Source: Patescibacteria group bacterium
GTDB lineage: Bacteria; Patescibacteriota; Minisyncoccia; Phycocordibacterales; UBA9973
Length of the DNA stretch: 64,000 nt
Direction: 5' to 3'
Assembly: GCA_038061755.1 (NCBI GenBank)
Contig: JBBTYN010000002.1
Location: 79,312-143,311 of the forward strand
Positions 19,604 to 53,040 of the stretch are shown here, one piece after another. Both the position numbers and the translations under genes were made by a program. The notes under the pieces are model-generated. The model was not told the DNA's origin and did not search any database. It saw only the letters and a list, made by a program, of their open reading frames with translations. Position 1 is the first letter of the stretch; each line of letters begins with the position of its first letter.

Positions 19604-19674
19604 GGGCTGTAGTATACCGGTAGTACAAGTGCTTTGGGAGCATTTAGACTGGGTTCAATTCCCAGCAGCCCGAC
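19604..19674 (+). tRNA. tRNA-Pro (anticodon TGG)
   Basis: Acceptor CGGGCTG/CAGCCCG, anticodon stem AGTGC/GCATT with loop TTTGGGA, and T-arm CTGGGTTCAATTCCCAG. Confidence 0.8.
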
Positions 19675-19678
19675 ATTG

Positions 19679-19748
19679 CGGGATTAGTTTAGTGGTAGAA
19701 TAAGAGTTTTCCAAACTCTGGGCAGGCGTTCGATTCGCCTATCCCGCA
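19679..19748 (+). tRNA. tRNA-Gly (anticodon TCC)
   Basis: Acceptor GCGGGAT/ATCCCGC, anticodon stem AGAGT/ACTCT with loop TTTCCAA, and T-arm AGGCGTTCGATTCGCCT. Confidence 0.8.
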
Positions 19749-19770
19749 CATAATTTAAATAATTAAAGTT

Positions 19771-27016: not shown

Positions 27017-27897
27017 AGGCAAAAAAATCTCTCGGACAAAATTTCTTAAAGTCAGAAATAGCTCTTCGTAAAATTATTGAAGCGGGAGAAATAAAATCTA
27101 CTGATGTAATTTTAGAAATAGGGCCAGGCAAGGGAGCGTTAACCTCTAAGCTTCTAGAAAAATCTGGAATAGTTATCGCTGTTGAAAAAGATCGTGAACT
27201 TTTTGAATTTTTAAAAATAAAATTTGCAGAAGCAATTACAGAAAAAAAATTAATTTTAATAAATGATGATATTCTAAAATTTATAGAGGATGTTGTTTTG
27301 AAAAGCATTGCGCAGGCTGACGAGCCGAGCATAGCAAATTTTCAGCAGAAAATTATGTGCGGTTTTCAAAATAATATCCTCAATAAATTTAACTACAAAA
27401 TCATTGCCAATATTCCTTACAACATTACCGGCGCAATTTTAAAAAAGTTTTTAACAGCAGAAAATCAACCCGAAAGTATGATATTAATGGTTCAGCATGA
27501 AGTAGCCAAAAGAATCATAGGAAGGGGAAGCAACCCTTCGACTCCGCTCAGGGTAAAGGAAAGTATTCTCTCTATTTCAGTCAAGGCTTACGGGGAGGCA
27601 AAGATGATAATGAAGGTTGATAAAAGATATTTCTCACCAAGTCCTAAAGTTGATTCGGCTATTATCGCCATAAAAAATATTTCTAGGAAGAATTTTGAAG
27701 GTGTCAAACACCCGATGTTTGACAATTTTGAAGAGAAATTCTGGGAAATAGTAAAAACTGGCTTTGCACATAAGAGAAAAAAGCTTTCTTCAAACTTAAA
27801 AGTTTTAAAATTAGAAAAAACCGACCTCCTAGAAAAGTTGGGAAACAAAAGAGCGGAAGATTTAACTCTTTCGGACTGGCTTGCATTAACTAAATAG
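27013..27897 (+). CDS. ksgA: 16S rRNA (adenine1518/1519-N6)-dimethyltransferase KsgA/RsmA (carrying an in-frame 92-bp element)
   Basis: LGQNFL, EIGPGKGALT, NIPYNITGAIL and F.P.PKVDSAII motifs. There is an extra 30-aa block between DILKFIE and NKFNYKIIANIPYN. Confidence 0.85.
   Translation: MKAKKSLGQNFLKSEIALRKIIEAGEIKSTDVILEIGPGKGALTSKLLEKSGIVIAVEKDRELFEFLKIKFAEAITEKKLILINDDILKFIEDVVLKSIAQADEPSIANFQQKIMCGFQNNILNKFNYKIIANIPYNITGAILKKFLTAENQPESMILMVQHEVAKRIIGRGSNPSTPLRVKESILSISVKAYGEAKMIMKVDKRYFSPSPKVDSAIIAIKNISRKNFEGVKHPMFDNFEEKFWEIVKTGFAHKRKKLSSNLKVLKLEKTDLLEKLGNKRAEDLTLSDWLALTK
27289..27380. repeat. 92-bp MITE-like palindromic element inserted in frame in ksgA (copy B)
   Basis: Identical over 92 bp to 24473-24564. 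The terminal inverted repeats extend to GAGGAT...ATCCTC. The reverse-frame ORFs 24280..24516 and 26994..27332 both start MLGSSACAMLFKTT because of this repeat. Confidence 0.7.
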
Positions 27898-27959: not shown

Positions 27960-28874
27960 TTGGCGGTGCTTTTTTTGGTTGTACTTTTTCTTTTTAAAAA
28001 AACATCTATATTTCAAAATACGGAAACATTTAAACAAGAAACGGCTCCAAACAATGGACTAACTGTGGACAACACTGACTTAACCATAGAAGATTTAGTG
28101 GACAAAGACACTGATGGAGACGGAATACCAGATTGGCAAGAAAGTTTATATGGACTTGATCCTACAAAAAAAGAAACAACTCCTGGAACACCTGACAGCT
28201 CAGCCTTAAGCAAATTAAGAACTACACAAGAAAATACTGGAAAAACAACAATTCAAGGCGGAGGCAACGCCTCCGCCACAAATACAGAAACTTTAACCCA
28301 AACTGAGAAATTTTCCAGAGAACTTTTTGCTATTGTAGTTGCCTCCAGCCAAAATGGGGCTATGGATCAAGCTACCATAGATGCGCTAAGCGCTTCCTTA
28401 GCAGAAAAAATGCAAAATCCTAATCCTAGAAAAATATATACAATTTCTGATATTAAAATCATAAATGATGATAATTTTAAAGCTTTTATGAATTATATAA
28501 ATGCTTCAGATAGCATTCATAAAAAAAGTCCAACAATAAAATATACTGCATTTGATGTGCTACAAGAATTTTCAAAAGATGAAAACAATCCAGACACTAG
28601 CGTGCTAGTAAAACTTGACCCAATCATAACACAAACAAATGCCATAAAAGACGCAATGATAAAAACAAATGTGCCAAAATCTCTATCAACCCTGCATCTA
28701 AATGTTATAAATTCACTCGAAAGGTTATCAGAAAACTTAAATGATATCAAGCTCTTTGACACTGATCCTGTCGTATCTCTTGGTGGCATTAGTCAATATA
28801 GTCAAAACACAAATACATTGTTATCAGATATTGCCAATCTTCAAAATATAATTCAACAAAAATTGAACAACTAG
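27960..28874 (+). CDS. Hypothetical membrane-anchored/secreted protein with a DTDGDGIPDWQE calcium-binding-like motif
   Basis: N-terminal TM segment, a DxDxDG motif and a T/S/N-rich low-complexity region. Confidence 0.5.
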   Translation: MAVLFLVVLFLFKKTSIFQNTETFKQETAPNNGLTVDNTDLTIEDLVDKDTDGDGIPDWQESLYGLDPTKKETTPGTPDSSALSKLRTTQENTGKTTIQGGGNASATNTETLTQTEKFSRELFAIVVASSQNGAMDQATIDALSASLAEKMQNPNPRKIYTISDIKIINDDNFKAFMNYINASDSIHKKSPTIKYTAFDVLQEFSKDENNPDTSVLVKLDPIITQTNAIKDAMIKTNVPKSLSTLHLNVINSLERLSENLNDIKLFDTDPVVSLGGISQYSQNTNTLLSDIANLQNIIQQKLNN

Positions 28875-28903
28875 GTAAAAAATTATATAATATAAATAAT
28901 AAA

Positions 28904-31162
28904 ATGACTGGTAAAAATAAAATAATAAAATTCATCTCTGTTATTCTAATTATTTCAATAATAATGCCTGTTGTTTTATTTTCTAGTCCCCAAAAAGCGC
29001 GAGCAACTGTACCGACTGCAGAGGTAGGCGCATTCGGATGGATTTCTAAATATTTTCAAGAATCAACCGCAGCATCTTCTTGGACAACAGCTTTAACAAC
29101 TGTTAAAGATTGGGCGGCCAAGATAGCTAAAGAGGTAATGAAAGCAATCGCAAAAAAAATCTTAGCGAAAATGACTCAAGCTACCATAAATTGGATTAAT
29201 TCTGATTTTCATGGACAGCCGCTTTTTTTAACGCATCCTGACTCTTTCTTTAGAGACATAGCAAAATCAGGACTAAAAGATATGGTAAATATATTCGGCT
29301 ATAACAACCTCCTATATCCTTTTGGTAGGCAATTTGCTTTAAATGCAATAAATAGTTACAAAAGCAAACTCGCTCAAAATGCCGAATATAGTTTAGGTAA
29401 AGTCTTGGATGGAGCGCAACTTAGGCTGTATCTAGGTAATTTTAATTATGGTGGATGGAATGGATTTTTAAATAATACGCAATACCCTCAAAATAATTAT
29501 CTAGGATTTAATATGATAGCAACCGAAGAGCTTGCCAGAAGAATTAAGGGTACAGTTCAATCTGCTGCTGATAAAGTACAATCCACTCTCCAGCAAGGAA
29601 TGGGTTTCCTCTCTCCAGAAAAATGTACAACTAACCCTAAATACAATAATGGAACAAATGAATTCCAAAAACCAAGTCTTGATACGGCTAAATGGGAGGC
29701 TGATTACAAAAACAGCCATCCTATTCCTTCTGGTCCTTCTGGTTCCAGTATGGATGCTATGGACAAATGGGATACAGATTTTAAAGCTGCTGAAGAAAAG
29801 GCTATAGATGATTTCTATACTAATAATACTTGCCCAAAAAAAGCAGACGGAACAAGTGGTTTTGAAAAAACTACTCCAGGCTTTGTGGCAGCTACCCAAG
29901 TAACAAATGCGCTTAATATGCCAGGCTTGACGACCGCGCTTGATGGAGCATTAGGCAATAGCTTAGCTGCTATTTTTGACGCCCTTTTAAATCACTTTTT
30001 AGACAAAGGCTTAAATGCGATGGCAAATAAAATTAACCCCGCACCCTCAATAGACAACTGGAGTTATAGTGGCAATACATTAACTGGAGGCACTGCTACA
30101 ACAACTGCTACAACAGTTGAAACTTTAAATATCCCACAAAACGTTTCAGTTACTGTCGGACAAACAACCAGCACCACAATCTCAGGCGGTTCAGGGACTT
30201 ATAGTATTCAACCTCAATCAAACGCGTCGCTGACAATAGCGATTGCCACGGTTGATATTTCTGGCTCTCTTCCAAAACTCAAAGTTACTGGTGTCGCGAA
30301 GGGTACAACCTCAGTCATAGCGCAAGATTCGTCTAGCCCAATACAAACTATAACGGTTACCATCACCGTAAGTAATATGGGGGATATAGTGGTTACTCCA
30401 GCAAATATTTCAACCGATGTTGGCGCGCAAGTCACCGCCACTATGTCTGGTGGCACAGAACCTTATTCTATTCAGACGAGCCCCAATGAAACAAATGCGA
30501 TAGCAACGTTTTCTGGCAATAACTTAATCGTATTTGGTATGGCAAATGGTACTACTTTTGTTGATATAAAAGATTCTTCAGCGCCAGCAAAAACTGTTCG
30601 CGTCAAGATATTAGTTGGTCCTAATATTTTAATCGTCGATCCATCAAGTGTTTCAGTTTATACTGGTGAAGTAGTTAGTGTGCCAATCTCAAATGGCACA
30701 GCACCGTATTTCGTCACAAATCAACAAAATATTAATGTGGCAACTGGTGAAATTTTATCCGCTACTCCTAATATCCTCACTGTTACCGGTCGCGCAGAAG
30801 GGACAAGCGTGGTGACAATCACAGATTCATCAACTCCAGCAAAAACAACTATCGTCAAAATTACGGTTTCTCTTAACTTAACCATTACACCGTCAAATGT
30901 TACACTTTATCTTAATAGTTGTTTTCTTGGTAGGTGTAGTAATACAGCCAACCTTACCATCTCAAATGGCACAGCGCCGTATTTCGTCACAAATCAACAA
31001 GACCCCACAGTGGCAACTGCTCAGGTTCTGTCAGCTTCTTATGGTGATTCAATTCTCACTGTTACTGGCCTCAAGGCAGGAACAAGCGTAGTTACTGTAG
31101 AAGATTCATCAGCTGAAGCAATCAAGCATGCCACCGTAAATATTACAGTAGTTAATAATTAG
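28904..31162 (+). CDS. Large cell-surface protein with four or five tandem Ig-like (Big-like) repeats
   Basis: N-terminal TM/signal segment. The C-terminal half has repeating roughly 90-aa units (ISGGSGTYSIQP..., MSGGTEPYSIQT..., ISNGTAPYFVTNQQ... twice) ending ...TVTG.AEGTSVVT..DSS.PAKT..V.I.V. Confidence 0.6.
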   Translation: MTGKNKIIKFISVILIISIIMPVVLFSSPQKARATVPTAEVGAFGWISKYFQESTAASSWTTALTTVKDWAAKIAKEVMKAIAKKILAKMTQATINWINSDFHGQPLFLTHPDSFFRDIAKSGLKDMVNIFGYNNLLYPFGRQFALNAINSYKSKLAQNAEYSLGKVLDGAQLRLYLGNFNYGGWNGFLNNTQYPQNNYLGFNMIATEELARRIKGTVQSAADKVQSTLQQGMGFLSPEKCTTNPKYNNGTNEFQKPSLDTAKWEADYKNSHPIPSGPSGSSMDAMDKWDTDFKAAEEKAIDDFYTNNTCPKKADGTSGFEKTTPGFVAATQVTNALNMPGLTTALDGALGNSLAAIFDALLNHFLDKGLNAMANKINPAPSIDNWSYSGNTLTGGTATTTATTVETLNIPQNVSVTVGQTTSTTISGGSGTYSIQPQSNASLTIAIATVDISGSLPKLKVTGVAKGTTSVIAQDSSSPIQTITVTITVSNMGDIVVTPANISTDVGAQVTATMSGGTEPYSIQTSPNETNAIATFSGNNLIVFGMANGTTFVDIKDSSAPAKTVRVKILVGPNILIVDPSSVSVYTGEVVSVPISNGTAPYFVTNQQNINVATGEILSATPNILTVTGRAEGTSVVTITDSSTPAKTTIVKITVSLNLTITPSNVTLYLNSCFLGRCSNTANLTISNGTAPYFVTNQQDPTVATAQVLSASYGDSILTVTGLKAGTSVVTVEDSSAEAIKHATVNITVVNN

Positions 31163-31198
31163 GTCATTCCGTAAGAAATATGCCATTTGAAATAATAA

Positions 31199-33238
31199 AT
31201 GTCAAAAGATTTAACAAAAAAAAAATCTGCTATTGAAAAAAATAAGTTCATTCTAGCGAGGACTGTCCTAGCTAGTGTGTTTGTTTTGTTCGTCTTGATA
31301 GGAATTTTTAGTCCGCTGACGAAAGTAAATGCTGCTGCTGACCCAAAACAATTAAATTTTCAAACCGCAATAGATGAACAAATATGTCTTTCTTGGGATG
31401 GTGGTCTTTCTCCTGGTGCATGTCTAGTGCAATTTTCATATTACCTGCTATATGTAATTCCGGCTTTTTTGCTGACAATGGCTGCTATATTTTTCAATAT
31501 CCTAATATCTATTACTTTAGGCAGTACGCTTCTTAAGTCAACCTTTATTTCTGACGCATGGGCAGTAGTTCGCGACCTTTCTAATATGTTCTTCATACTT
31601 ATTTTACTTTATATAGCCATTAAAGTTATTTTGGGAATGAGCGGATCTGAAGTTAAAAAAATGATAGGAAATGTCGTGATAATGGCGCTTCTTATAAATT
31701 TTTCTATGTTTTTTACTCAAGTGATTATTGATTCTTCAAATATATTGGCTTTAATTTTTTACAATAAGTTAAGCCCAACGTCTCAATACACCACAATAAC
31801 TGGAGAAAAAGATATTGCGGGTGGCTTAGTTCAAGCCTTTAACCCCACAGCCTCTTTGAGTCCAAATTTTTTTATAGCAGCTAAGGCAACACAAATACCA
31901 GACCCAGACGATCCTACCAAAACCATAACAAAAAAAGAAGACAAAGTGCCACTCGGAATGATGGTAGGAATTATTCTTGTTACTGGATTAGTTTTACTTT
32001 TTGCCACATATGCATTATTTGTGTCAGGACTATACTTCGTGGGCAGATTAATTGAGCTTTTTGTCTTAATTGTTTTCTCTCCTTTTGCTTTTATGTCTTG
32101 GACAATACCAAAATTCGCAGGTATAGACTACATAGGATGGGACGCTTGGCTTAAACGCCTTATCACGGCATCATTTATGGCGCCGATTTTTATGTTCTTT
32201 TTATATTTTATATTTATGGTAGTGAAAGCAAATATATTCAGTGATTCTGTATTAACAGGTCAAGGTATAATAATAATGTTATTACGTATGGCAATCCCAG
32301 CATTGGTAATTTTGGTTTTGCTTCTTCAAGCAGTCAAATTTGCCAAGAAAGGCTCCGGAATGTTTGGGGAAATGGTAATGAAAGGCGCAAAGATGGTAGG
32401 CGGGGTGGCCTTGGGGGCAACAGTAGGTGGGTTAGCAGTCGCTGGACGAGCAAGTGTTGGTAGAGCAGGGGCAGCTATGGCAAATTCAGAATGGACAAGG
32501 AAACGAGAAGCTGCAGGAAAATTTGGTTCTGGGGTATTTAGAGATGTAACAAAAAAAATGGGTACAGGTAGCTTTGATATTAGGGGAGCAAAAATTGGTG
32601 GTCAAACCTTAGCTTCTGCTACGGGTATGAAAGTTGGTGAAGCGCAAAAAGGTGGTTTTGCAGAGAAAAGAGAAAAGGATGTAAAGAAGAGAGTGGAAAG
32701 AGCTAAAGAAATTGAAGTTGGAGAGGATGAACATTTGAAACAAGCATTAAATACAACAGAAGCAAATCTACAGGGACTTCTAAGTGCAAATGCAAAAGAA
32801 ATTGAGACACTTGATAAAACAATTGAAAAGAAAAGACAAGAAGCAATTGACGCAGAAAGAGACTTTAAGGCTGGAACAATCACACAAACAGATTTACAAA
32901 CAAAAACAAATGAACTGAAGAATGCAAAAGATAATAAAAAGGATTTTGTAAAGGGAAATGAATATATGACCACAGATAGTGCTGGTATAGCCTCAATCAA
33001 AAAAGGAACTGGGGTAAATATTGATGCCTTAGAAAAACTTAAAAAAGATCAAGTTCAAGATATAAAAACAGAAAATGTAATAAGAAGACAGGCTTATGCT
33101 ACTAAATTAGAAGGTGGTGGAAATAGAGCTTTAAATTTTGTATTCAGTGGAGGTCAGTATGCCTTAAAGCGTGGTGCTAATGAGGCTGCACATAAAATAA
33201 GAACTGAAGTTAAATTAGACAGTGGAACAAAGGCATAA
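31199..33238 (+). CDS. Polytopic membrane protein, VirB6/TrbL-like candidate of a T4SS-like cluster, with a C-terminal charged coiled-coil tail
   Basis: At least 8 predicted TM helices over about 400 aa, then a K/E-rich tail. It lies in a cluster with VirB4 and PrgI-like genes; the assignment is by architecture and context only. Confidence 0.45.
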   Translation: MSKDLTKKKSAIEKNKFILARTVLASVFVLFVLIGIFSPLTKVNAAADPKQLNFQTAIDEQICLSWDGGLSPGACLVQFSYYLLYVIPAFLLTMAAIFFNILISITLGSTLLKSTFISDAWAVVRDLSNMFFILILLYIAIKVILGMSGSEVKKMIGNVVIMALLINFSMFFTQVIIDSSNILALIFYNKLSPTSQYTTITGEKDIAGGLVQAFNPTASLSPNFFIAAKATQIPDPDDPTKTITKKEDKVPLGMMVGIILVTGLVLLFATYALFVSGLYFVGRLIELFVLIVFSPFAFMSWTIPKFAGIDYIGWDAWLKRLITASFMAPIFMFFLYFIFMVVKANIFSDSVLTGQGIIIMLLRMAIPALVILVLLLQAVKFAKKGSGMFGEMVMKGAKMVGGVALGATVGGLAVAGRASVGRAGAAMANSEWTRKREAAGKFGSGVFRDVTKKMGTGSFDIRGAKIGGQTLASATGMKVGEAQKGGFAEKREKDVKKRVERAKEIEVGEDEHLKQALNTTEANLQGLLSANAKEIETLDKTIEKKRQEAIDAERDFKAGTITQTDLQTKTNELKNAKDNKKDFVKGNEYMTTDSAGIASIKKGTGVNIDALEKLKKDQVQDIKTENVIRRQAYATKLEGGGNRALNFVFSGGQYALKRGANEAAHKIRTEVKLDSGTKA

Positions 33239-33242
33239 AAAT

Positions 33243-33716
33243 ATGACGGACAAATTAAAACAAACAATTAAAGACGAAGTGGAAAAATTACCAAAAGAAA
33301 ATCAAGAAGTGATTAATAATTTTGGTTGGGAAAAAATTACGGAAGAAGTTGGAAAGAAGTTTTTACTTTCGGATAATGAAATAAATGATTTTCAAGTAGA
33401 AACTTTAATTATTTTAGTTGGATTAGAAGATATTGATTTTTACGCGAGTAATATAGAAAACAATGTCGGCACCAGCAAGGATGAAGCGAAAAAAATTACT
33501 GATGAAGTAATTCAAAAAATATTTACCCCAATTAATGACATCCTAGTAGAAAACATTAAAAAAAGCGACAAGCTAAAAAATACAAACGTAGAACAAAATC
33601 TTAATTTTATTCTTTCCGGTGGAGATTATACGGCCTTTTTGGATGTCCCACGCCTTATTGATGAGGGAGCAGGAGAAAATGAAACAGTTTTACCGGTCTT
33701 TTTTATTAAAAAATAA
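33243..33716 (+). CDS. Hypothetical acidic protein (paralog of the next gene)
   Basis: Shares with 33731..34306 an N-terminal LPxExQxxIN motif and a similar layout. The start is taken at the internal Met (MTDKLKQ). Confidence 0.45.
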   Translation: MTDKLKQTIKDEVEKLPKENQEVINNFGWEKITEEVGKKFLLSDNEINDFQVETLIILVGLEDIDFYASNIENNVGTSKDEAKKITDEVIQKIFTPINDILVENIKKSDKLKNTNVEQNLNFILSGGDYTAFLDVPRLIDEGAGENETVLPVFFIKK

Positions 33717-33730
33717 TATATAATAACAAC

Positions 33731-34306
33731 ATGGAAGACACAACAGATTTATTACAAATAAAAATTGAGAAGGCAAAAATGCAATTGCCAGAAGAAACCC
33801 AAAACGCAATCAATGCTGTTGATTATAAAGCGGTTATTTTAGAAATGAGAAAAAAAAAAGGATATAGTTTTGAACAATTAGGAGACCTAGAAACTGAAAC
33901 AGAATTATTGCTTTGCGGGCTTCTTAGTCCAGAAAATTATCCAAAAGAATTAGGAAACAGGATGCATCTTTCAGGTAATGAAGTTAATGAATTAGTAAAA
34001 GAAATGAATAATCGTGTTTTTGCAAAAATAAAAGAAAACTTGGTAAAAAGGACAGAAGAAAAAAAAGAAGAAAATGATGATATGCAAATATTACATTCTG
34101 CTGGAATTGAGATTATTCCTGAAAAAAAAGAATTAACAACACCCACGCCTCCAATCTTGGCACAAAAATTATCCGGTTATGTTAAAAATGAAGTAGTGGA
34201 AACAGAACATTCTCTAGAAAATATCACAAAAATAAGTATGCCAACTCCACCAATTACTAAAACAAGCAAAATAACTATAGATCCATATAGAGAAATTCCT
34301 GAATAA
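33731..34306 (+). CDS. Hypothetical acidic protein (paralog of the previous gene)
   Basis: MEDTTDLLQIKIEKAKMQLPEETQNAINAV... No recognisable family. Confidence 0.45.
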   Translation: MEDTTDLLQIKIEKAKMQLPEETQNAINAVDYKAVILEMRKKKGYSFEQLGDLETETELLLCGLLSPENYPKELGNRMHLSGNEVNELVKEMNNRVFAKIKENLVKRTEEKKEENDDMQILHSAGIEIIPEKKELTTPTPPILAQKLSGYVKNEVVETEHSLENITKISMPTPPITKTSKITIDPYREIPE

Positions 34307-34312
34307 CAAAGC

Positions 34313-34391
34313 AATTACGAATTATCAATTACGAATTACGAATTAAAAAAACAAAAAAATTAAAAATCAGTAATTACGAATTACGAATTTG
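34313..34391 (+). repeat. Array of AATTACG heptamer repeats (direct orientation) upstream of the four-helix-bundle gene
   Basis: The array reads aattacgaattatcaattacgaattacgaattaaaaaa...agtaattacgaattacgaattt. Confidence 0.7.
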
Positions 34392-34751
34392 AAAGAAAAT
34401 ATTATACAACAAAAAAGTTATGTATTTGCAATAAAAATTATTGAATTATATAAATACTTAATTGGAACAAAAAAAGAATTTATTTTATCAAAACAACTTT
34501 TGAGAAGTGGAACGTCAATAGGAGCAAACATAGAAGAAGCATTAGGTGGTCAATCAAGAAAAGATTTTATCTCAAAATTATCTATAGCCTATAAAGAAGC
34601 TCGAGAAACAAAATACTGGCTCTCTTTATTAAGGGAAGCAAAATATATGACTCAAGAAGAATTGAATCCTGTTTTTGATAATTGTGAGGAAATATTAAAA
34701 ATAATAGGTAAAATTCAAAAAACATCAAAAGAAAATGGGGTTAATTCGTAA
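34389..34751 (+). CDS. Four-helix-bundle protein (TIGR02436 / 23S rRNA IVS protein / DGR Avd-like family)
   Basis: 120 aa with ...SKQLLRSGTSIGANIEEALGGQSRKDFISKLSIAYKEARETKYWLSLL..., matching the sQl.RsatSI.aNIaEG...s.kdF...l.iA..e..Et..wl.l motif. TTG start. The gene lies inside heptamer-repeat arms. Confidence 0.75.
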   Translation: MKENIIQQKSYVFAIKIIELYKYLIGTKKEFILSKQLLRSGTSIGANIEEALGGQSRKDFISKLSIAYKEARETKYWLSLLREAKYMTQEELNPVFDNCEEILKIIGKIQKTSKENGVNS

Positions 34752-34790
34752 TTGATTATATAATGTTCTATAATGTAGTAGTGGGTTGCT

Positions 34791-34826
34791 AATTCGTAAT
34801 TCGTAATTCGTAATTTATAATTGATT
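34791..34826 (+). repeat. Inverted-orientation heptamer array (AATTCGT x3) plus conserved leader aatttataattgattcatATG
   Basis: Reverse complement of the upstream AATTACG array. Together the arrays form the arms of a hairpin whose loop is the 4HB gene. A second partial copy (aattcgtaattgat) overlaps the 4HB stop codon at 34743-34756. Confidence 0.7.
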
Positions 34827-34829
34827 CAT

Positions 34830-35273
34830 ATGCAGTTTAAAGTTCCACAATTTTTAGACATAGAAGACAAAATATTCGGCCCTTTCACTTTTAGGGAATT
34901 TGTTTATTTGGCTGGTGGAGCAGGCTTGTGTTTTATTCTTTATAAATTGCTAGGTCTTATTTTAGGAGCCATACCAATTTTAATTGTGGCAGGATTTTCG
35001 CTCGCTCTTACTTTTTATAAACCAAACAATAAACCATTCCTTAACATAATTGAATCTAGTTTTAAATACTTTACCAAAAACAAACTTTATATTTGGAAAA
35101 AAGGCAAAAGCCACGCTTCAATGGACGGTGTGCGACATGATTTCACTAAATCAGATATAAACAAAGTTCAAATAATACATTCTAGTAATTTACAATTAAA
35201 TGGAAGCAAGTTACGGGACTTAGCTTGGAGTTTGGATGTATTAGATTTAAGTAAACAACAGGGAAAAAATTAA
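34830..35273 (+). CDS. PrgI/VirB3-like small membrane protein
   Basis: MQFKVPQFLDIEDKIFGPFTFREFVYLAGGAGLCFILYKLL..., a two-TM hairpin architecture typical of the PrgI family, immediately upstream of the VirB4 genes. The ATG start is at 34830. Confidence 0.5.
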   Translation: MQFKVPQFLDIEDKIFGPFTFREFVYLAGGAGLCFILYKLLGLILGAIPILIVAGFSLALTFYKPNNKPFLNIIESSFKYFTKNKLYIWKKGKSHASMDGVRHDFTKSDINKVQIIHSSNLQLNGSKLRDLAWSLDVLDLSKQQGKN

Positions 35274-35282
35274 GAATTAGCA

Positions 35283-35378
35283 ATTACGAATTACGAATGA
35301 AAAATACAGATTACAAATTAAAAGATTATGAGTTGCGAATTAAATTCGTAATTCGCAATTCGTAATTTAAAATTGATT
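35283..35378 (+). repeat. Intergenic hairpin made of heptamer repeats (direct AATTACG arm, 43-nt loop, inverted AATTCGT arm) plus the conserved leader before the next ATG
   Basis: aattacgaattacgaatg...(loop)...aattcgtaattcgcaattcgtaatttaaaattgattcaaATG. This is the same architecture as the arms flanking the 4HB gene, but with an empty loop. Confidence 0.7.
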
Positions 35379-35381
35379 CAA

Positions 35382-36020
35382 ATGGCCTTAAAAGCAAAAG
35401 CAACTCAAGAATTTGTGCCAATCAAGGAAGTTCGCGATGGAATAGTCGTGCTAAAAAACGACGAATTACGGGCTATCGTGCTGGCTAATTCTGTAAATCT
35501 ATCTCTAAAATCTTCTGATGAACAACAAGCAACAATAATGCAATTTCAAAATTTTCTTAATACCTTAGATTTTTCTGTGCAAATATCAATCCAATCAAGA
35601 AGGCTAAACATTAGGCCTTATCTTTTGCTTTTGGAAGACAGAATAAAGGTTCAAAATGAACCCCTTTTAAAATTACAAACTAGAGAATATATAGAATTTA
35701 TTAAAAATTTTACTGATTCAGTGGCAATAATGACAAAAAACTTTTTTGTAGTAGTTCCATACACCCATACTACTTTAAAATCAGACTCTGGAATACTGGA
35801 TAAAATATTTTCAAGAAAAAATAAAGAGGAGATAAAAGTTGCAAAACAAATAGATTTTGAAGAAAAAAGGTCTCAATTGGAAGAAAGAGTAGCTGTTATT
35901 CAGCAAGGACTCTCCCGTTGTGGTATAAATTCAGCTCAACTTGGTACTGAAGAAGTAGTGGAAGTATTTTATAAAGTTTTCAACCCGGGGGAAATAGAAG
36001 GAAAAATTAAATTAGAATAA
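35382..36020 (+). CDS. VirB4/TrbE N-terminal-domain protein (split from the ATPase)
   Basis: EFVPIKEVRDGIVVLKNDELRAIVLANSVNLSLKSSDEQQATIMQFQNFLNTLDFSVQI resembles the VirB4 N-domain. The ORF ends 28 nt before the ATPase ORF. Confidence 0.5.
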   Translation: MALKAKATQEFVPIKEVRDGIVVLKNDELRAIVLANSVNLSLKSSDEQQATIMQFQNFLNTLDFSVQISIQSRRLNIRPYLLLLEDRIKVQNEPLLKLQTREYIEFIKNFTDSVAIMTKNFFVVVPYTHTTLKSDSGILDKIFSRKNKEEIKVAKQIDFEEKRSQLEERVAVIQQGLSRCGINSAQLGTEEVVEVFYKVFNPGEIEGKIKLE

Positions 36021-36048
36021 TCTACGAGCTTAACGCCACAAAAATTAT

Positions 36049-37899
36049 ATGGATTTTTTTAAAAAATTATTTGGAAAAGAAAAAAAGACTGAAAGTGAAG
36101 AAATACGAACTTCTGTTTTGGCTGTCTTGCCAGAAAAAATTTACGAATCTGCAAATTTGGAACTTCAAGATATCATTGCCCCATCAGCCTTAAAAATCGA
36201 CCCGAAATCTATAAACCTAGGTAGCAAAATAGCCCGCACTTTTTTTATAATATCTTATCCAAGGTTTTTAACAGATAATTGGTTTTCTCCAATAATTAAT
36301 TTAGATAAAATTTTTGATATTTCAATATTCGTTCACCCCATAGACACTTCTCTTGTTCTGCGACAATTTCAAAAAAAAGTTGCCGAAGTCCAAAGTCAAA
36401 TAAGTGTTCGAGAATCAAAAGGAATGGTGCGTGACCCAATGTTGGACACTGCCTATGAAGACTTAGAAGGGCTTCGTAATAATTTAATTCAAGCACAAGA
36501 AAAAATGTTTGATGTCGGTATTTATATCACAATTTATGCAGATAATGAATTGGAATTATATAAAATAGAAAATGAAATAAAATCAATGCTTGAATCAAAG
36601 CTAATATATATCAAACCGGCTCTTTTTCAGCAAGAAGAAGGTTTTAAAAGTGTCATTCCAATAGAAACAGACCTATTAAACATCCACCAAAAATTAAATT
36701 CTGAGCCCCTTTCTAGCGTTTTTCCATTTATTTCTTCTGATCTTACTTCAGACAAAGGAATACTTTATGGCATTAATAGACATAACTCGTCCCTCGTTAT
36801 CTTCGATAGATTCAGCTTGGAAAATTATAACTCAGTAACATTTGCTAAATCAGGTTCTGGAAAATCTTATGCGACAAAATTAGAAATTCTAAGATCCTTA
36901 ATGTTTGATACTGATGTTATCGTAATAGATCCAGAAAGAGAATATGAATTCTTGGCTGAAGCTGTCGGTGGACGATATTTTAACATTTCGCTCTCTTCCG
37001 ATCATCACTTGAATCCTTTTGACTTGCCGATACCTCGCGAAGACGAAACAGCTGAAGATGTTTTACGTTCAAATATCATTAATTTAGTAGGGCTTTTTAG
37101 ACTAATGCTAGGTGGGCTCACTCCAGAAGAAGATTCGATGGTAGACCGAGCTATTTCAGAAACTTATGCAATGAAAGATATAACGCCAGAATCAGATTTT
37201 TCAAATATTGAACCACCTCTTCTTTCAGATTTTGAAATGGTGCTCGGAGGAATGGAAGGAAGTGATTCAGTCATTGCTAGATTAGCAAAATACACCAGAG
37301 GTTCTTGGGCAACTTTTTTAAACAGACCGTCTAACGTGGATATTAATAAAAAATTCGTGGTATTTTCTGTTCGTGATATGGAAGACGAATTAAAACCAGT
37401 AGCAATGTATATTATTATGCATTATATTTGGAATGCAATAAGAAAGAATCTTAAAAAAAGACTTCTAGTGGTGGATGAAGCTTGGTGGATGATGAAATCA
37501 GAAGATACAGCCTCGTTCTTATACTCTATTGCAAAAAGAGGCAGAAAATATTACTTAGGTCTTTCCACTATCACTCAAGATGCGGCAGACTTTATGAAAT
37601 CTCCCTATGGAGTGCCAATAATTACCAATTCCTCCATTCAACTTCTTTTAAAACAATCACCTACCACAATTGATATTTTGCAAAAAACTTTTAATCTTAC
37701 TGATGAAGAAAAGTATTTACTTTTGGAGTCTGGATTAGGAGAGGGTATATTTTTCGCCGGATTAAAACATGTTGCTATAAAAATAGTTTCTTCTTATACG
37801 GAAGACCAAATCATTACCTCTGATCCTTCACAACTATTATTAAACAAAAAGGCCAAAGAGGAACAAGAAGCAAAAGCGACAGCGACAGCAGGGAAGTAG
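36049..37899 (+). CDS. VirB4/TraC/TrbE-family type IV secretion ATPase (ATPase domain)
   Basis: Walker A AKSGSGKSYATK, Walker B LLVVDEAWWMM and GRKYYLGLSTITQ. The size and motifs match the VirB4 C-terminal two thirds. Confidence 0.8.
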   Translation: MDFFKKLFGKEKKTESEEIRTSVLAVLPEKIYESANLELQDIIAPSALKIDPKSINLGSKIARTFFIISYPRFLTDNWFSPIINLDKIFDISIFVHPIDTSLVLRQFQKKVAEVQSQISVRESKGMVRDPMLDTAYEDLEGLRNNLIQAQEKMFDVGIYITIYADNELELYKIENEIKSMLESKLIYIKPALFQQEEGFKSVIPIETDLLNIHQKLNSEPLSSVFPFISSDLTSDKGILYGINRHNSSLVIFDRFSLENYNSVTFAKSGSGKSYATKLEILRSLMFDTDVIVIDPEREYEFLAEAVGGRYFNISLSSDHHLNPFDLPIPREDETAEDVLRSNIINLVGLFRLMLGGLTPEEDSMVDRAISETYAMKDITPESDFSNIEPPLLSDFEMVLGGMEGSDSVIARLAKYTRGSWATFLNRPSNVDINKKFVVFSVRDMEDELKPVAMYIIMHYIWNAIRKNLKKRLLVVDEAWWMMKSEDTASFLYSIAKRGRKYYLGLSTITQDAADFMKSPYGVPIITNSSIQLLLKQSPTTIDILQKTFNLTDEEKYLLLESGLGEGIFFAGLKHVAIKIVSSYTEDQIITSDPSQLLLNKKAKEEQEAKATATAGK

Positions 37900-37917
37900 G
37901 TATGATATAATTAGGTC

Positions 37918-38898
37918 ATGAAATTAAGATTTTTATTATTAAGTTTTATTACACTAATAATATTAGGAACTTTTTTGCCACTAAAAGTAAGGGCTACCTC
38001 TATTGATATCTTTGTTAATATAACTCCAGAAAACCCAGATCCTGGTGAAAACGTAAATATTACTTTGAAAAGCTATGTTAACAACTTAGATATTGTTTTA
38101 ATCTCTTGGTCTGTGAATGGTAAAAAAGTTTCTTCTGGAATTGGTCAGAAATCTTTTTCTATTACTGCTCCAAGGGCTGGAGAGGAGACAAATGTTATAG
38201 CCACCACCTCTCTGCCAGATGGAACAGTAGATACAAAAATAATAATAAGACCTTTAGTAATGATATTGCTCTACCAAGCAATGGATTCTTATGTTCCTCC
38301 TTTTTACAAAGGTAAAGCATTGCCATCCCCTGATAGTAAAGTAAAAATTGTAGCTCTACCAGAAATAAAGTCGGGCTCTAATTTGGTAGATCCTAAAAAT
38401 TTAACTTACACGTGGACAAAAGATTATAACAATAATCAAGATGATTCAGGTTATGGAAAAAATTCTCTTACTTATATAAACGACTATCTTGATAATTCAA
38501 ACAATATTGGGGTAACAGCTGGAACAACGGATCAAAAATATTCATCAACAGGAAGTATCAATGTAGGAATGACAGAACCAAAAATTATATTTTATAAAAA
38601 TGATGCAAAACTAGGAACAATTTGGGAACAGGCGCTTTCTGATGGGTATAAAATAATAGGTGATGAAATTATAGAAGCGGCACCATATTTTATATCACCA
38701 AGCGATATAAGAATTCCAACGCTTACTTGGGATTGGTTTATAAATGACGAAACAGTCAATGCGCCAATTTATAGAAAAAACACTCTGCCACTCAAAGCAC
38801 AAGCTGGAACCTCAGGAACATCTAAAATAAGATTGGAAATTAATAATAAATACAAAATTTTTCAAAATACAGTTAAAGAAATTAATGTGGACTTTTAG
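37918..38898 (+). CDS. Secreted hypothetical protein of the T4SS-like cluster
   Basis: Signal peptide MKLRFLLLSFITLIILGTFLPLKVRA. No family recognised. Confidence 0.5.
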   Translation: MKLRFLLLSFITLIILGTFLPLKVRATSIDIFVNITPENPDPGENVNITLKSYVNNLDIVLISWSVNGKKVSSGIGQKSFSITAPRAGEETNVIATTSLPDGTVDTKIIIRPLVMILLYQAMDSYVPPFYKGKALPSPDSKVKIVALPEIKSGSNLVDPKNLTYTWTKDYNNNQDDSGYGKNSLTYINDYLDNSNNIGVTAGTTDQKYSSTGSINVGMTEPKIIFYKNDAKLGTIWEQALSDGYKIIGDEIIEAAPYFISPSDIRIPTLTWDWFINDETVNAPIYRKNTLPLKAQAGTSGTSKIRLEINNKYKIFQNTVKEINVDF

Positions 38899-38899
38899 T

Positions 38900-39355
38900 A
38901 TGAAAAAATATTTATCTTACATTTTAATACTAATCGTTCTAATTGGTTTTATGACTCCTATTTATTTTAGTTTGGCTGAAAACTATAATCTTTTAGCTCC
39001 TTTGCCTAAAACTGATGGAACAACAATGAGTAGTTATCCTACGCAGGATGGAAACTTGAGCGTTTATTTAAACTTAATGATAAAACTCTTCATCGGCATC
39101 TGCGCTGTTTTAGCTGTGATAATGATTGTAATGGGTGGAATTGAATATATGACAAGCGAATTACCTGGAATGAAAAGCGAAGGCAAGGAAAGAATTAGAA
39201 ATGCGATTTTTGGGCTTCTTTTAGCTCTTGGTGCTTGGACGCTTCTTAATACAATCAATCCAAACCTACTCAAGACTAATATTGTGCCACCTGTAAAAAC
39301 TATTGTATGTACCCCTCCAGCAGTTTTAAAGAATGGTCAATGTGTTAATCCATAA
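38900..39355 (+). CDS. VirB2/TrbC-like pilin candidate
   Basis: Signal peptide, then two hydrophobic helices (LFIGICAVLAVIMIVMGGIEYM and AIFGLLLALGAWTLLNTI), which is the VirB2-type pilin architecture. The start is taken at MKKYLSYIL. Confidence 0.4.
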   Translation: MKKYLSYILILIVLIGFMTPIYFSLAENYNLLAPLPKTDGTTMSSYPTQDGNLSVYLNLMIKLFIGICAVLAVIMIVMGGIEYMTSELPGMKSEGKERIRNAIFGLLLALGAWTLLNTINPNLLKTNIVPPVKTIVCTPPAVLKNGQCVNP

Positions 39356-39365
39356 TAAATAATAT

Positions 39366-40712
39366 ATGTCAAAAAGAAACTTTATACTTTTAATAATAAT
39401 CATAGTTATCGCATTAATTGCAATTTTTGGATATTTTTATTTTAACCAAGGAACAAATACACCAGGAGGAGATGACACAGGTACAAACTTTATTTCACAA
39501 TTTTATCCATTTAGAAATAACAACAATGCAACAAAACCTACCACCACAACGCCTCCCATTGATGTCTCAGACTACCAGCCACCAATGGATGTAGTAACTG
39601 TAAAATTAAAAAAAGTTTCAAGCATGCCTATTGCAGGCTTTACTGTATTTTCTAAAGAAAGGTTAAAAGATGTGCCCATAGTAACACCGGTCTTAGAAAC
39701 CGATGCCACTACCGAAAATCCTGCTCCTAAGATAACCAAGCCGACTCCACCACTAACCGAATTTATGCCAGCCTTGAGGTATGTGGAAAGAACTACGGGA
39801 AATATTTACCAGACTTTTGCAGATAAAATAGAAGAAAGAAAATTTTCCACGACTATTATTCCTATGGTTTATGAAGCATTTTTTGGAAACAAGGGAAATT
39901 CTGTAGTTATGAGATATTTAAAGGGAGATGCTAAAACTATTATAACTTTTGTTGGGACTCTACCAAAAGAATTTCTTGGCGCAGACACCACTGACAATAA
40001 TGAAATAAAAGGAACGTTCCTTCCAGAAGACACAGAAGATGTAAGCCTATCAAGCGATAATCTTACTCTATTTTATCTTTTCAACTCTGGAGACAATATA
40101 ATTGGCACAACTTTAAATTTAGTAAATAATAAAAAAGTTCAAGTTTTTGATTCACCATTTACTGAGTGGTTATCATTATTCCCAAATAATAAAATGATTA
40201 CTTTTACCACCAAACCTTCGTTTCTAATACCTGGATATATGTATGCGCTAAATCCTACTAATAAAAATTACAATTTCCATGAAATCTTAGGCAATATAAA
40301 CGGGCTTACCACTCTCACCAGCTCTGATGGAAAATTAGTTCTTTATAGTAATGATAATTTATCACTCAACATTTATCACATAAATACAAAAGTTTCTGAT
40401 GCCCTAGTTGTAAAAACATTAGCAGAAAAATGTGTTTGGAATAAAAATAGTGATGCTATTTATTGCGGAGTACCAAAATCTATATCTGGCACTCAATATC
40501 CAGATAGTTGGTATCAAGGAGAAGTTTCTTTTTCAGACCAAATTTGGAAAATAGATATTAAAACTAAAAATGCAACAATGATTGCAGATCCAGCCACTAT
40601 GGTTGGCGGGGAAGATATCGATAGCATAAAACTTGCGCTAGATGATGGAGAAAACTATTTATTTTTTGTAAATAAAAAAGATTCTTTCCTTTGGGAACTT
40701 GAGCTTAAATAA
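39366..40712 (+). CDS. Hypothetical membrane-anchored secreted protein (448 aa)
   Basis: N-terminal TM LLIIIIVIALIAIFGYFYF followed by a T/P-rich linker. It is the last gene of the cluster. Confidence 0.5.
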   Translation: MSKRNFILLIIIIVIALIAIFGYFYFNQGTNTPGGDDTGTNFISQFYPFRNNNNATKPTTTTPPIDVSDYQPPMDVVTVKLKKVSSMPIAGFTVFSKERLKDVPIVTPVLETDATTENPAPKITKPTPPLTEFMPALRYVERTTGNIYQTFADKIEERKFSTTIIPMVYEAFFGNKGNSVVMRYLKGDAKTIITFVGTLPKEFLGADTTDNNEIKGTFLPEDTEDVSLSSDNLTLFYLFNSGDNIIGTTLNLVNNKKVQVFDSPFTEWLSLFPNNKMITFTTKPSFLIPGYMYALNPTNKNYNFHEILGNINGLTTLTSSDGKLVLYSNDNLSLNIYHINTKVSDALVVKTLAEKCVWNKNSDAIYCGVPKSISGTQYPDSWYQGEVSFSDQIWKIDIKTKNATMIADPATMVGGEDIDSIKLALDDGENYLFFVNKKDSFLWELELK

Positions 40713-41199
40713 CTCCCACGTATTTAATAACAACTCGACGATCACGCCCGATGCCTACAGATTCAGTCTTTAGGTCACTTGATTCAGACAAAAATTCATG
40801 AATAATTCTTCGCTCAAAAGAGGACATTGGATCAACTTCTATATTAGACTTAAAATACCTAGCTCTTTCTGACATCATATGAGCTACTGCGCGAATATTT
40901 TCAACATGTTTTTTTTGAAAACCATTTATATCAATAATAATTGCTGTCCCAAAGCAAGGCTTAGGGGATTCCCCTAAGCCTTGCTTTGGGGTTGTTTTTG
41001 ATTCTATAATCCTATGAGCAAGGTAGTTTAATGCGTGCAAGCCATCACCATCGTGTCCAATAAAAAAATGCGGCTCACTAACTTCCACAGAAACCCATAT
41101 ATTTTTAGGTTCATCATCAATAATTGAAATTTTATTTAATTTTACTGTAGTTTTTTCAATTAATTCTTTTATTAAATTTTGAATTTCTTCTTTTTCCAT
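40705..41199 (-). CDS. jag: Jag/KhpB (KH + R3H domain RNA-binding protein), with an in-frame palindromic insertion in the linker
   Basis: Jag_N-like start, KH segment (FFIGHDGDGLHALNYLAHRI) and an R3H C-terminus (SSFERRIIHEFL...GIGRDRRVVI). Confidence 0.8.
   Translation of the reverse strand: MEKEEIQNLIKELIEKTTVKLNKISIIDDEPKNIWVSVEVSEPHFFIGHDGDGLHALNYLAHRIIESKTTPKQGLGESPKPCFGTAIIIDINGFQKKHVENIRAVAHMMSERARYFKSNIEVDPMSSFERRIIHEFLSESSDLKTESVGIGRDRRVVIKYVGVI
40948..40990. repeat. Perfect 20-bp-stem, 3-nt-loop GC-rich hairpin inside the jag CDS
   Basis: CCCAAAGCAAGGCTTAGGGG-att-CCCCTAAGCCTTGCTTTGGG encodes ...TPKQGLGESPKPCFGT... on the minus strand, in frame. Confidence 0.65.
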
Positions 41200-52200: not shown

Positions 52201-52248
52201 GCCAGCGAACACCGAAAGGAAAAATGTTCGCTGGCTTTTTTATTTTTG
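52201..52248. terminator. Rho-independent terminator (gccagcgaaca...tgttcgctggc + T-run), also at the 3' end of the minus-strand gene 52240..53040
   Basis: 11-bp GC-rich stem followed by tttttt atttttg. Confidence 0.5.
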
Positions 52249-53040
52249 TGGCAGATTTACTATCATCTTTTCCAATGCATCCCTATCATTAACTGCTACA
52301 CGAAGGAAAACTGGCAAATCATTTTTGTCTGCAAAACTTAGTTTCCGCAGATAATTCCAATCTTTAAATCCTTTTTTATTGATAGAAGTATGAGCAAGCA
52401 TAATATCAATTGCTTCATCATAAATTACAACCCACTCGATACCAACATTATTAATAGGAATTGGCGTCTTGTCTTTAGGAGAAAGTTTTTCATTAACACT
52501 GGCTATCTTAGTTACTAGGTTATCAAAAAAAGTAGACATCCACTTATGAGTTTTTCCAGCAGCTACTTTTGCTTCAGTGCTTTGCAAAACAATTAGCGAT
52601 TCAGAAGGCGCTGATAATGCAAATGCATTAATAAGCTTGCTATATTCTTTTTTAATTTCAGCTTTCATTTCTTTAGTTATTTGCAACTGCCTATCCGCAG
52701 AAGGAGCATAATTTATTGCCTTTCCCTCATTATCAATTATTCTTCCTTTAATCAGATCTTTCCACTTTGGAGCTGACTCTTTTTTAACTCCTTCTTCCTC
52801 TTTCTGTTGTTTTAAAAGCTTAGCCTTATATTCTTCGTAAGCTTCTTTATCTTTAAAATCATGTATAGTTTTAAACAAACTATCTTCATCTACAACTGGC
52901 GCTAAATGCTCTGCGGATGGTTTTTCATCAACAGCTTCTCTATGACCAAAAGGATCAATTGACATCTTTTCATGGATATCTGTATGATCATCTGCCATAG
53001 CTTTCAATATTTTTTTTTCTACTGGCGGTTCTTCTTTCAT
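52240..53040 (-). CDS. Hypothetical protein (266 aa) upstream of pilB
   Basis: Long ORF, charged N-terminal half, no recognisable family. Confidence 0.5.
   Translation of the reverse strand: MKEEPPVEKKILKAMADDHTDIHEKMSIDPFGHREAVDEKPSAEHLAPVVDEDSLFKTIHDFKDKEAYEEYKAKLLKQQKEEEGVKKESAPKWKDLIKGRIIDNEGKAINYAPSADRQLQITKEMKAEIKKEYSKLINAFALSAPSESLIVLQSTEAKVAAGKTHKWMSTFFDNLVTKIASVNEKLSPKDKTPIPINNVGIEWVVIYDEAIDIMLAHTSINKKGFKDWNYLRKLSFADKNDLPVFLRVAVNDRDALEKMIVNLPQK

Follow-up and report, generated by a model that had tools for sequence, protein, structure and literature searches.

The type IV secretion systems (T4SSs) of Patescibacteria have been surveyed across 3,035 genomes by Quinonero-Coronel et al. 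in 2025 (PMC12102498). In that survey, the Patescibacteria VirB4 proteins formed a monophyletic clade nested in MPF_FATA, TrsD was the commonest component accompanying virB4, and PrgI/VirB3, VirB6, and PF18895/VirB2-like pilins were encoded nearby. Relaxases were almost absent, VirD4 homologues lay mostly far from virB4, and the T4SS cluster of Paceibacteria was located near dnaA, dnaN, rnpA, rpmH, and ksgA (PMC12102498). Genetic evidence comes from the saccharibacterium Southlakia epibionticum, in which transposon sequencing by Wang et al. in 2023 found the T4SS genes and pilins to be essential for epibiotic growth (PMC10633639; PMC12857230). These T4SS genes correspond to SEML1_0006-0019 (PMC10633639), and in this single species tested genetically, the competence gene comEC is dispensable whereas the T4SS is essential (PMC10633639, PMC12857230). 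A 2025 review singled out this system as the first T4SS that is essential to the bacterium carrying it and speculated that a pilus could serve as a conduit in uptake or signalling (PMC12857230). Tubular structures, possibly T4SS pili, were also seen at the interface between a host and a Minisyncoccota parasite feeding on the host's RNA (bioRxiv 10.64898/2026.06.21.733656). Here, we analyzed a 64-kb stretch of a Patescibacteria genome (contig JBBTYN010000002.1), referred to as the window, to which the contents, flanks, and negative results described below refer. We describe a gene block at positions 27960 to 40712 that is very probably a chromosomal Patescibacteria-clade T4SS derived from monoderm MPF_FATA conjugation machinery.

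The kind of system encoded by the block, which ultra-small Patescibacteria carry at an origin-proximal site in place of a conjugation system, has already been described, and the cluster is a clean, complete, and intact example of it rather than a new kind. Its bearer is a groundwater bacterium of the Paceibacteria, similar to Nomurabacteria. As in other T4SSs of the Patescibacteria clade, the nearest homologues of VirB4 are from Patescibacteria, TrsD is encoded directly upstream of VirB4, and PrgI/VirB3, VirB6-like, and PF18895 pilin proteins accompany them. The block also shares the lack of a nearby relaxase or coupling protein and the chromosomal location by dnaA, dnaN, rnpA, rpmH, and ksgA. 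In a homologue search (not a formal tree), the best 120 of more than 8000 VirB4 matches were all Patescibacteria/Paceibacterota proteins of about 615 amino acids with 88 to 100% identity, and the identical VirB4 sequence is already present in NCBI as a protein of a Patescibacteria metagenome-assembled genome. The window differs in having a single short pilin instead of the 6-gene pilin array of Southlakia, and virB4 of this strain is not followed by a gene for a peptidase or lysozyme. In addition, essentiality has been demonstrated only in Saccharimonadia, another class than the Paceibacteria to which the window belongs. The features of the block are listed in Table 1.

Table 1. Features of the T4SS block and its dnaA context in window coordinates, with gene presence among syntenic loci long enough to judge (TM, transmembrane; aa, amino acids; pI, isoelectric point; IVS, intervening sequence)
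Feature	Position	Strand	Characteristics	Presence in eligible loci
p304, acidic envelope protein	27960-28874	+	pI 4.7; one N-terminal TM segment; DTDGDGIPDW motif	
p752, surface protein	28904-31162	+	N-terminal TM/signal segment	42/50 (N-domain)
VirB6-like "extended" polytopic membrane protein	31199-33238	+	about 7 TM helices, aa 18-375	54/54
Acidic cytoplasmic protein 1	33222-33716	+	pI 4.6; no TM; likely start about 33243	66/66 (acidic family, between VirB6-like and PrgI)
Acidic cytoplasmic protein 2	33731-34306	+	191 aa; pI 5.1; no TM	
Inserted cassette	34309-34826	+	four-helix-bundle/23S-rRNA-IVS gene within inverted (AATTACG)n heptamer-repeat arms	
PrgI/VirB3-like small membrane protein	34821-35273	+	150 aa; likely start 34830	70/70
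Second heptamer-repeat inverted repeat	35263-35379	.	PrgI-TrsD spacer; RNA hairpin, z -4.07	
TrsD-like protein, free-standing VirB4 N-domain	35373-36020	+	215 aa; likely start 35382	74/74
VirB4 ATPase	36049-37899	+	616 aa; central and C-terminal P-loop domains	
p326, exported protein	37918-38898	+	326 aa; N-terminal signal/anchor; TM 6-24	74/74
VirB2-like T4SS pilin	38885-39355	+	156 aa; likely start 38900	69/69
p448, membrane-anchored extracytoplasmic protein	39366-40712	+	448 aa; strong TM 6-24	62/62
DnaA	42725-44068			50/53 (locus context)

The block consists of 12 head-to-tail open reading frames (ORFs) on the plus strand, separated by intergenic gaps of -17 to 99 nucleotides (nt). To place it in context, every protein of the window was mapped onto 80 VirB4-bearing loci, each from the genome of a different Paceibacteria species, and presence was counted among the loci long enough to judge (eligible loci). 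The gene order across the 80 loci is near-invariant: ksgA, p304, p752, VirB6-like, acidic protein(s), PrgI, TrsD, VirB4, p326, pilin, and p448, followed by jag, yidC, and rnpA on the minus strand and then by dnaA and dnaN. The T4SS core genes are present in 54/54 to 74/74 eligible loci. The only strain-variable genes are the four-helix-bundle gene (5 of the 80 loci by tblastn) and a spermidine-synthase-like gene (0 of 80). The latter is part of the upstream flank of the block together with PcrA/UvrD and KsgA (27013 to 27897), whereas the downstream flank encodes Jag, YidC, YidD, RnpA, L34, DnaA, DnaN, and a class A penicillin-binding protein. The block has been passed on vertically as a single syntenic unit, with ksgA on one side and jag-yidC-rnpA-rpmH-dnaA on the other.

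A preliminary description of this DNA, made from the sequence, had begun the cluster at 31199 and placed large surface proteins immediately upstream of it, at 27960 to 31162. Both proteins are indeed there, but the syntenic mapping across the 80 species loci makes p304 and p752 part of the unit, which begins at 27960 and not at 31199. All ORFs were found at the coordinates given in that description, and the components that it listed are real, although the list omitted the four-helix-bundle/23S-rRNA-IVS gene at 34389 to 34751. The true starts of the PrgI, TrsD, pilin, and acidic protein 1 genes likely lie slightly downstream of the mechanical ORF starts (Table 1), as judged from the gene calls in a 96 to 98% identical strain, L081, which occurs in Hainich groundwater assemblies. 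Only two stretches of the cluster cannot be aligned to this strain: the coiled-coil tail of the VirB6-like protein (32692 to 33194) and the region of the pilin start (38932 to 39053), and L081 carries an extra 194-amino-acid minus-strand ORF in the region before or within the pilin start. Promoter and terminator scans of the window returned counts no higher than the shuffled expectation (63 versus 64 and 10 versus 9, respectively); therefore, the operon boundaries are drawn from the short intergenic gaps alone.

The 616-amino-acid VirB4 ORF scores 363.9 bits against NCBIfam model NF045971 ("VirB4-like conjugal transfer ATPase, CD1110 family"), for which the cut-off is 325, and its remaining NCBIfam matches are all to VirB4, TraC, or TrbE models. 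Among Pfam families, the TraG P-loop domain PF19044 (6.5e-25) is matched far better than DUF87/HerA (1.2e-5). A Walker A motif (AKSGSGKS) lies near residue 265 and a Walker B motif (LLVVDEAWW) at residue 472. The closest relatives in the PDB are VirB4 (4AG5; 7.5e-40) and TrwK (7.5e-8), and no FtsK or HerA chain was among the PDB matches at E ≤ 1e-3. Because these matches are to VirB4 and TrwK only, the ATPase is not of the FtsK/HerA type, which had been named initially as the competing affiliation; it matches VirB4, and its neighbors are T4SS components.

The membrane-proximal N-domain of VirB4 is supplied in trans by the 215-amino-acid TrsD-like ORF, which stops 28 nt before VirB4. The two ORFs match complementary parts of the same 752-position CD1110 model, with positions 2 to 167 covered by the shorter ORF (1.3e-5) and positions 182 to 733 by the longer one. 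The shorter ORF also matches the N terminus of VirB4_plasma in NCBIfam (7.6e-11) and aligns with positions 13 to 200 of the 201 positions of the TrsD/TraD family (E 2.1e-5), and its orthologue in L081 carries a precomputed TraC-like match (PF26593). The score against TrsD/TraD model NF041427 was 24.5 bits, below the curated threshold of 200; the protein is TrsD-like in architecture but not a TrsD/TraD member at that threshold. In all 74 eligible loci the N-domain is a separate ORF of 210 to 234 amino acids, with a median identity of 72%. We considered a pseudogene or frameshift as the origin of the split and rejected it, as the split is kept in all of these relatives. Since the ORFs cover complementary model positions and are separate in 74/74 loci, the split of VirB4 is ancestral and does not reflect a frameshift.

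The PrgI protein matches PF12666 with 35.6 bits (gathering score, 27) and TcpE at 2e-3, has a TM segment at residues 43 to 61, and is encoded immediately upstream of the VirB4 unit formed by TrsD and VirB4. The pilin consists of a signal/anchor segment, a pair of hydrophobic helices, and a short tail that contains Cys, and it scores 42.4 bits against PF18895 (T4SS_pilin; gathering score, 26.6) and 19.3 bits against the older TrbC Pfam model, which is below the gathering score of 27.9. The VirB6-like protein has an extracytoplasmic loop with invariant Cys63 and Cys75, followed by a Gly/Ala-rich linker and a 280-residue cytoplasmic tail that includes a charged coiled coil (residues ~490 to 679). 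It did not match the Pfam TrbL or NCBIfam VirB6 hidden Markov models at E ≤ 0.1, and a profile of 36 of its homologues found no VirB6 in the PDB. What supports the tentative VirB6/TrbL label is similarity in fold alone. Medium- or low-confidence models underlie two of this study's structure-based assignments. The acidic proteins 1 and 2 are paralogous (BLASTP, 1e-7) and recover each other reciprocally by jackhmmer, and acidic protein 1 matched no Pfam or NCBIfam family.

Overall, these results bear out most of what had been proposed for the individual genes. The VirB4-family ATPase with Walker A and B motifs, its N-domain in a separate ORF 28 nt upstream, and the PrgI-like protein are recovered by family models, with NF045971 and PF12666 exceeding their thresholds and both VirB4 ORFs matching one CD1110 model. 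The signal-peptide protein with two-helix VirB2 pilin architecture agrees with the PF18895 match above the gathering score, and the relationship of the two acidic paralogues holds by BLASTP and jackhmmer. Each of the two proteins proposed to be secreted (326 and 448 amino acids) has one N-terminal hydrophobic segment. For the VirB6/TrbL-like protein, the polytopic topology, charged tail, and fold similarity are consistent with the label, but Pfam and NCBIfam lend it no support.

VirB4 shows 74 to 96% identity across the 80 species, with a median of 85% compared to 77% for DnaA. In every locus where the comparison could be made, VirB4 is more conserved than DnaA (55/55 loci) and DnaN (51/51). 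This constraint is unusually strong for a secretion ATPase. Median identities of the other proteins are 72% for TrsD, 56% for PrgI, 36% for p326, 32% for the VirB6-like protein, 32% for p752, and 30% for p304; the exposed parts (VirB6-like, p752, p304, and p326) diverge fast. The window is low in GC throughout (~0.33), and the cluster closely resembles its flanks in GC content (0.345 versus 0.335), third-position GC content (0.243 versus 0.230), and codon frequencies (r = 0.95). No relaxase, coupling protein, or integrase domain was found in the scanned ORFs of at least 110 amino acids across the 64 kb, a span that takes in 31 kb before the block and 23 kb after it. The tRNA genes closest to the block, some 8 kb upstream, show no att-like feature.

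We weighed these data against the possibility that the block is an integrated conjugative element (ICE), or the remnant of one, that transfers DNA with the help of a relaxase and coupling protein encoded outside the window. The recognizable parts are all of conjugation descent (the CD1110-family VirB4, PrgI, and TrsD), only 64 kb of the genome is in view, and many Patescibacteria genomes encode VirD4 homologues elsewhere and a few encode relaxases (PMC12102498). However, the block occupies one chromosomal site, from ksgA to jag/yidC/dnaA, in 80 species, its composition is that of its flanks, its VirB4 is conserved above DnaA, the scanned ORFs of the window include no integrase, relaxase, or coupling protein, and the nearest tRNA genes show no att-like feature, whereas true conjugative relatives retain MobC, a relaxase, and VirD4 beside VirB4. 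We rejected the ICE hypothesis, which we regard as extremely improbable, on the grounds of synteny, composition, and absent DNA-processing genes. Because of its fixed synteny, VirB4 conservation, flank-like composition, and missing DNA-processing genes, the block is best explained as a chromosomal core system. This is also what the preliminary description had favored over an ICE, having seen no relaxase or coupling protein and having suggested a comparison of GC content and codon usage with the flanks; the synteny in 80 species, the codon usage, and the domain scans all point the same way. Host attachment and DNA uptake, the functions suggested there, would be two among several possible ones.

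Among described conjugation machineries, the closest are the MPF_FATA systems of Firmicutes, such as pGO1/pSK41 (TrsC-TrsD-TrsE), pCF10 (PrgH-PrgI-PrgJ), CTn2/CD1110, and Clostridium perfringens pSXP-169_2. The window shares with them a CD1110-family VirB4 and the order of PrgI followed by VirB4, and the TrsD N-domain is free-standing in pGO1 as well. A wall hydrolase downstream of VirB4 is seen in relatives. One plasmid cluster with a VirB4 among the nearest plasmid homologues (29 to 35% identical) reads MobC, relaxase, VirD4, and further genes up to PrgI, an unsplit VirB4, and an SLT hydrolase, a conjugative arrangement that the window lacks. Unlike these systems, the window VirB4, which is only 29 to 35% identical to theirs, is not accompanied by MobC, a relaxase, VirD4, a topoisomerase, or a sortase, and the block is not mobile but stays at a fixed place on the chromosome. 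It also includes a VirB2-like pilin, which those systems do not have (PMC12102498, PMC12857230).

More distant systems share fewer features with the block. Models from a Mycoplasma ICE were matched below their cut-offs, namely, the pilin-like Mbov_0395 by the pilin (2.3e-7; score of 30 versus 40) and the VirB4 Mbov_0397 (cut-off, 590) by TrsD (7.6e-11; score of 40) and VirB4 (8.6e-79; score of 265). The Mycoplasma VirB4 is unsplit, unlike that of the window, and belongs to a mobile ICE. These matches indicate that the ICE of a wall-less monoderm also pairs VirB4 with a small pilin-like two-helix protein, which hints that such a partner may not be unique to Patescibacteria among monoderm-type systems. 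Compared to the diderm MPF_T systems of R388 and pKM101, no VirB5, VirB7, VirB8, VirB9, VirB10, or VirB11 was recognized in the window, there is no outer membrane core, the VirB6-like protein carries its long cytoplasmic tail, and the TrbC/VirB2 Pfam model is matched below threshold (19.3 versus 27.9). Helicobacter pylori ComB and archaeal Ced resemble the block in being T4SS derived and in having no relaxase or coupling protein, and there is a weak match to the P-loop of CedB. Past the ATPase core there is no specific homology to either system, and the resemblance is one of functional analogy only.

Six lineage-specific conserved partners accompany the recognizable core: p304, p752, the two acidic paralogues, p326, and p448. 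We found no published assignment for any of these six Paceibacteria-specific proteins. The p304 gene is the first of the block, directly after ksgA; its product has no Pfam match, and homologues were detected by tblastn in 35/80 species loci, always between ksgA and p752. The p752 protein combines a conserved alpha-helical N-domain (residues ~75 to 375) with a variable C-terminal array of Ig-like repeats. The p326 gene directly follows VirB4 in 74/74 eligible loci and encodes a predicted beta-rich, Ig/PKD-like protein, the orthologues of which give weak PKD_3/Ig_3 matches. The p448 gene is the last before the convergent jag; in its product, a linker rich in Pro and Thr is combined with a beta domain rich in Trp and Cys, possibly a propeller of the TolB type, and its orthologues give weak PD40/WD40 matches and, in 3 of 31 cases, a PG_binding_1 match. 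Sequence-profile searches of the PDB returned nothing meaningful for the VirB6-like protein, p448, p326, the p752 N-domain, TrsD, or the acidic family.

One further domain was considered for p752 and set aside. DUF4141 is encoded in the tra clusters of Bacteroides conjugative transposons, between traG and traJ. It was matched by 5 of 44 p752 homologues; the matches span 22 to 48 N-terminal residues at the signal/TM segment and lie below the gathering score, and we rejected them as evidence.

The pilin of the window is a short form without a fused enzyme, whereas most of its 63 syntenic orthologues are 300 to 730 amino acids long. In about half of these orthologues, the C terminus is a peptidoglycan enzyme, and at least six enzyme families are represented, comprising NlpC/P60 (12; e.g., at positions 12898 to 13914 of locus L001), VanY (8), YkuD (5), Amidase_5 (4), Peptidase_M15_4 (3), and SLT/SLT_2 (3). 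We found no description of a fusion of a pilin to a peptidoglycan enzyme in the searchable literature. In species with a fusion, the enzyme may supply the "missing VirB1."

By analogy to solved T4SSs, TrsD and VirB4 would form a hexameric motor docked via PrgI/VirB3 on a VirB6-like channel in the cytoplasmic membrane. VirB4 could then pull two-helix pilin subunits out of the membrane and drive their assembly into a short tube or pilus that spans the envelope. A scaffold across the wall might be formed by p304, p326, and p448, which each cross the membrane once, and p752, with its conserved base and variable Ig-like repeats, may be the exposed part that binds the host. Drawing on the literature, we propose that the machine would be a housekeeping organelle of the epibiotic lifestyle that passes macromolecules, either proteins or nucleic acids, between bacterium and host and would presumably not transfer the bacterium's own DNA by conjugation. 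Several points weigh against this model. Roles have been given to p304, p752, p326, p448, and the acidic proteins without support from homology, and for the window organism the direction of transport and the cargo are purely inferential, drawn from analogy. Neither a VirB8-like nor a VirB1-like component was recognized in the window, and the enzyme fusions of many relatives raise questions about whether the pilin-like module always polymerises. A coupling protein could also lie elsewhere in the genome; in Patescibacteria, VirD4 homologues are commonly encoded at a large distance from virB4 (PMC12102498).

Import of host macromolecules appears about as likely as export of effectors, and pure adhesion less likely. 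An importer would act as a ComB- or Ced-like conduit through which a cell unable to make nucleotides takes in nucleic acids or other macromolecules of its host, and we consider this possible but doubtful. The coupling protein and relaxase, which are the receptors of export substrates, were not found in the window, and the extreme purifying selection on VirB4 is what might be expected of a nutritional lifeline. Uptake has been proposed previously (PMC11665869 and PMC12857230), and the RNA-feeding Minisyncoccota parasite with possible T4SS pili at its interface (bioRxiv 10.64898/2026.06.21.733656) would fit such a role. The NCBIfam match to the archaeal DNA importer CedB (4.3e-8) seems to point in the same direction, but it covers only 75 residues of the P-loop and reaches 32 bits against a cut-off of 700. 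Moreover, the cluster encodes no nuclease, ComEC-like channel, or nucleic-acid-binding protein, and sequence cannot tell the direction of transport. Equally open to doubt, though plausible, is an exporter or attack device that places effectors, including cell wall enzymes, onto or into the host, with the pilin-like protein as carrier or anchor. The swapping of at least six enzyme families on the pilin domain in about half of the orthologues is a pattern typical of delivered effectors, surface parts such as the p752 repeats and the VirB6 tail are variable, and effector delivery has been speculated upon (PMC10633639, PMC11665869). However, the pilin of the window has no enzyme and the block encodes no effector candidate, no coupling protein is present to recruit substrates, and the fused enzymes may instead be VirB1-type helpers that open the cell's own wall, similar to PrgK/SLT downstream of VirB4 in Firmicutes.

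A third function, that of a pure adhesion or pilus organelle without transport, in which the sole task of the T4SS core would be to build a VirB2 filament with the p752 adhesin at its tip, we judge to be improbable. The pilin is universally conserved, a large Ig-repeat surface protein belongs to the unit, and pilins are essential in Southlakia, all of which would suit such an organelle. Against this, the VirB6 and VirB3 parts of the translocon are strictly retained, "pilins" that carry a fused enzyme would be unlikely to form a packed filament, and the window already contains type IV pilus machinery, which serves adhesion and motility, in the form of a PilB-like T2SSE ATPase (53061 to 54758). 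Returning to the macromolecule-moving organelle, a more specific version of it combines uptake with wall cutting: the 11-gene origin-proximal core module, with its ATPase more constrained than DnaA, would be a housekeeping organelle for feeding, not for secretion or mating, whose short VirB2-type tube takes up host RNA or nucleotides, while the pilin doubles as the carrier of interchangeable enzymes that cut the host wall. We think this version rather unlikely as a whole; if it were true, the window would hold a minimal, enzyme-less form of the machine.

A large part of bacterial diversity consists of Patescibacteria, which live off host cells. The example described here comes from the Paceibacteria, the least studied large class, and the comparison defines a universally conserved Paceibacteria gene set that includes the six partners, as well as a VirB4 conserved above DnaA. 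The pilin-enzyme fusions offer a handle for asking whether the machine attacks the host wall.

The cassette between the acidic protein 2 and PrgI genes is variably present and is not a T4SS component. Its 120-amino-acid four-helix-bundle ORF (34389 to 34751) matches PF05635 (1.7e-29) and TIGR02436 (1.5e-33). The arms of the cassette (34309 to 34345 and 34790 to 34826) are 86% complementary and form a long-range stem in the predicted RNA fold (z -4.2). The heptamer motif has 11 matches in the window, all within 34314 to 35366, compared to 0.08 expected. In the second inverted repeat, the right arm and start context are 87% identical to the sequence that precedes prgI. Among the syntenic loci, the exact heptamer repeat is confined to those carrying the four-helix-bundle gene. 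These features suggest an IVS-type cassette lodged in the operon, as either a small mobile cassette or an RNase III processing site. A weak bAvd-like match of the four-helix-bundle gene prompted us to consider a diversity-generating retroelement, which was rejected as there is no reverse transcriptase and no template/variable repeat pair.

Several other features of the window were recorded. The MetK (S-adenosylmethionine synthetase) gene at 7795 to 10161 encodes a 788-amino-acid product with an intein that contains a LAGLIDADG homing-endonuclease domain. Three other ORFs, at 21113 to 23248 (711 amino acids), 15526 to 16875 (449 amino acids), and 10142 to 11059 (305 amino acids), have no Pfam match at E ≤ 1e-3. 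The PilB-like gene lies on the minus strand and encodes a T2SSE/MshEN ATPase, which places type IV pilus machinery in the same window as the T4SS; its neighbors at 52240 to 53040 and 57851 to 58522 have no Pfam match. At about 18500 to 19750, a cluster of four tRNA genes (Arg, Gly, Pro, and Gly) marks a switch in both the orientation of genes and the cumulative GC skew. Since about 23 kb separate this switch from dnaA, the origin of replication may not lie right beside dnaA. Finally, the jag coding region contains, at 40948 to 40990, a palindrome with two perfectly matching 21-nt halves (CCCAAAGCAAGGCTTAGGGGA T TCCCCTAAGCCTTGCTTTGGG), after which a T-rich run follows. The palindrome lies 236 nt beyond the stop codon of p448, the last T4SS gene, and is also conserved in L081. 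A terminator that acts in both directions and is embedded in a linker-coding segment is one possible interpretation, and a small palindromic insertion is another.

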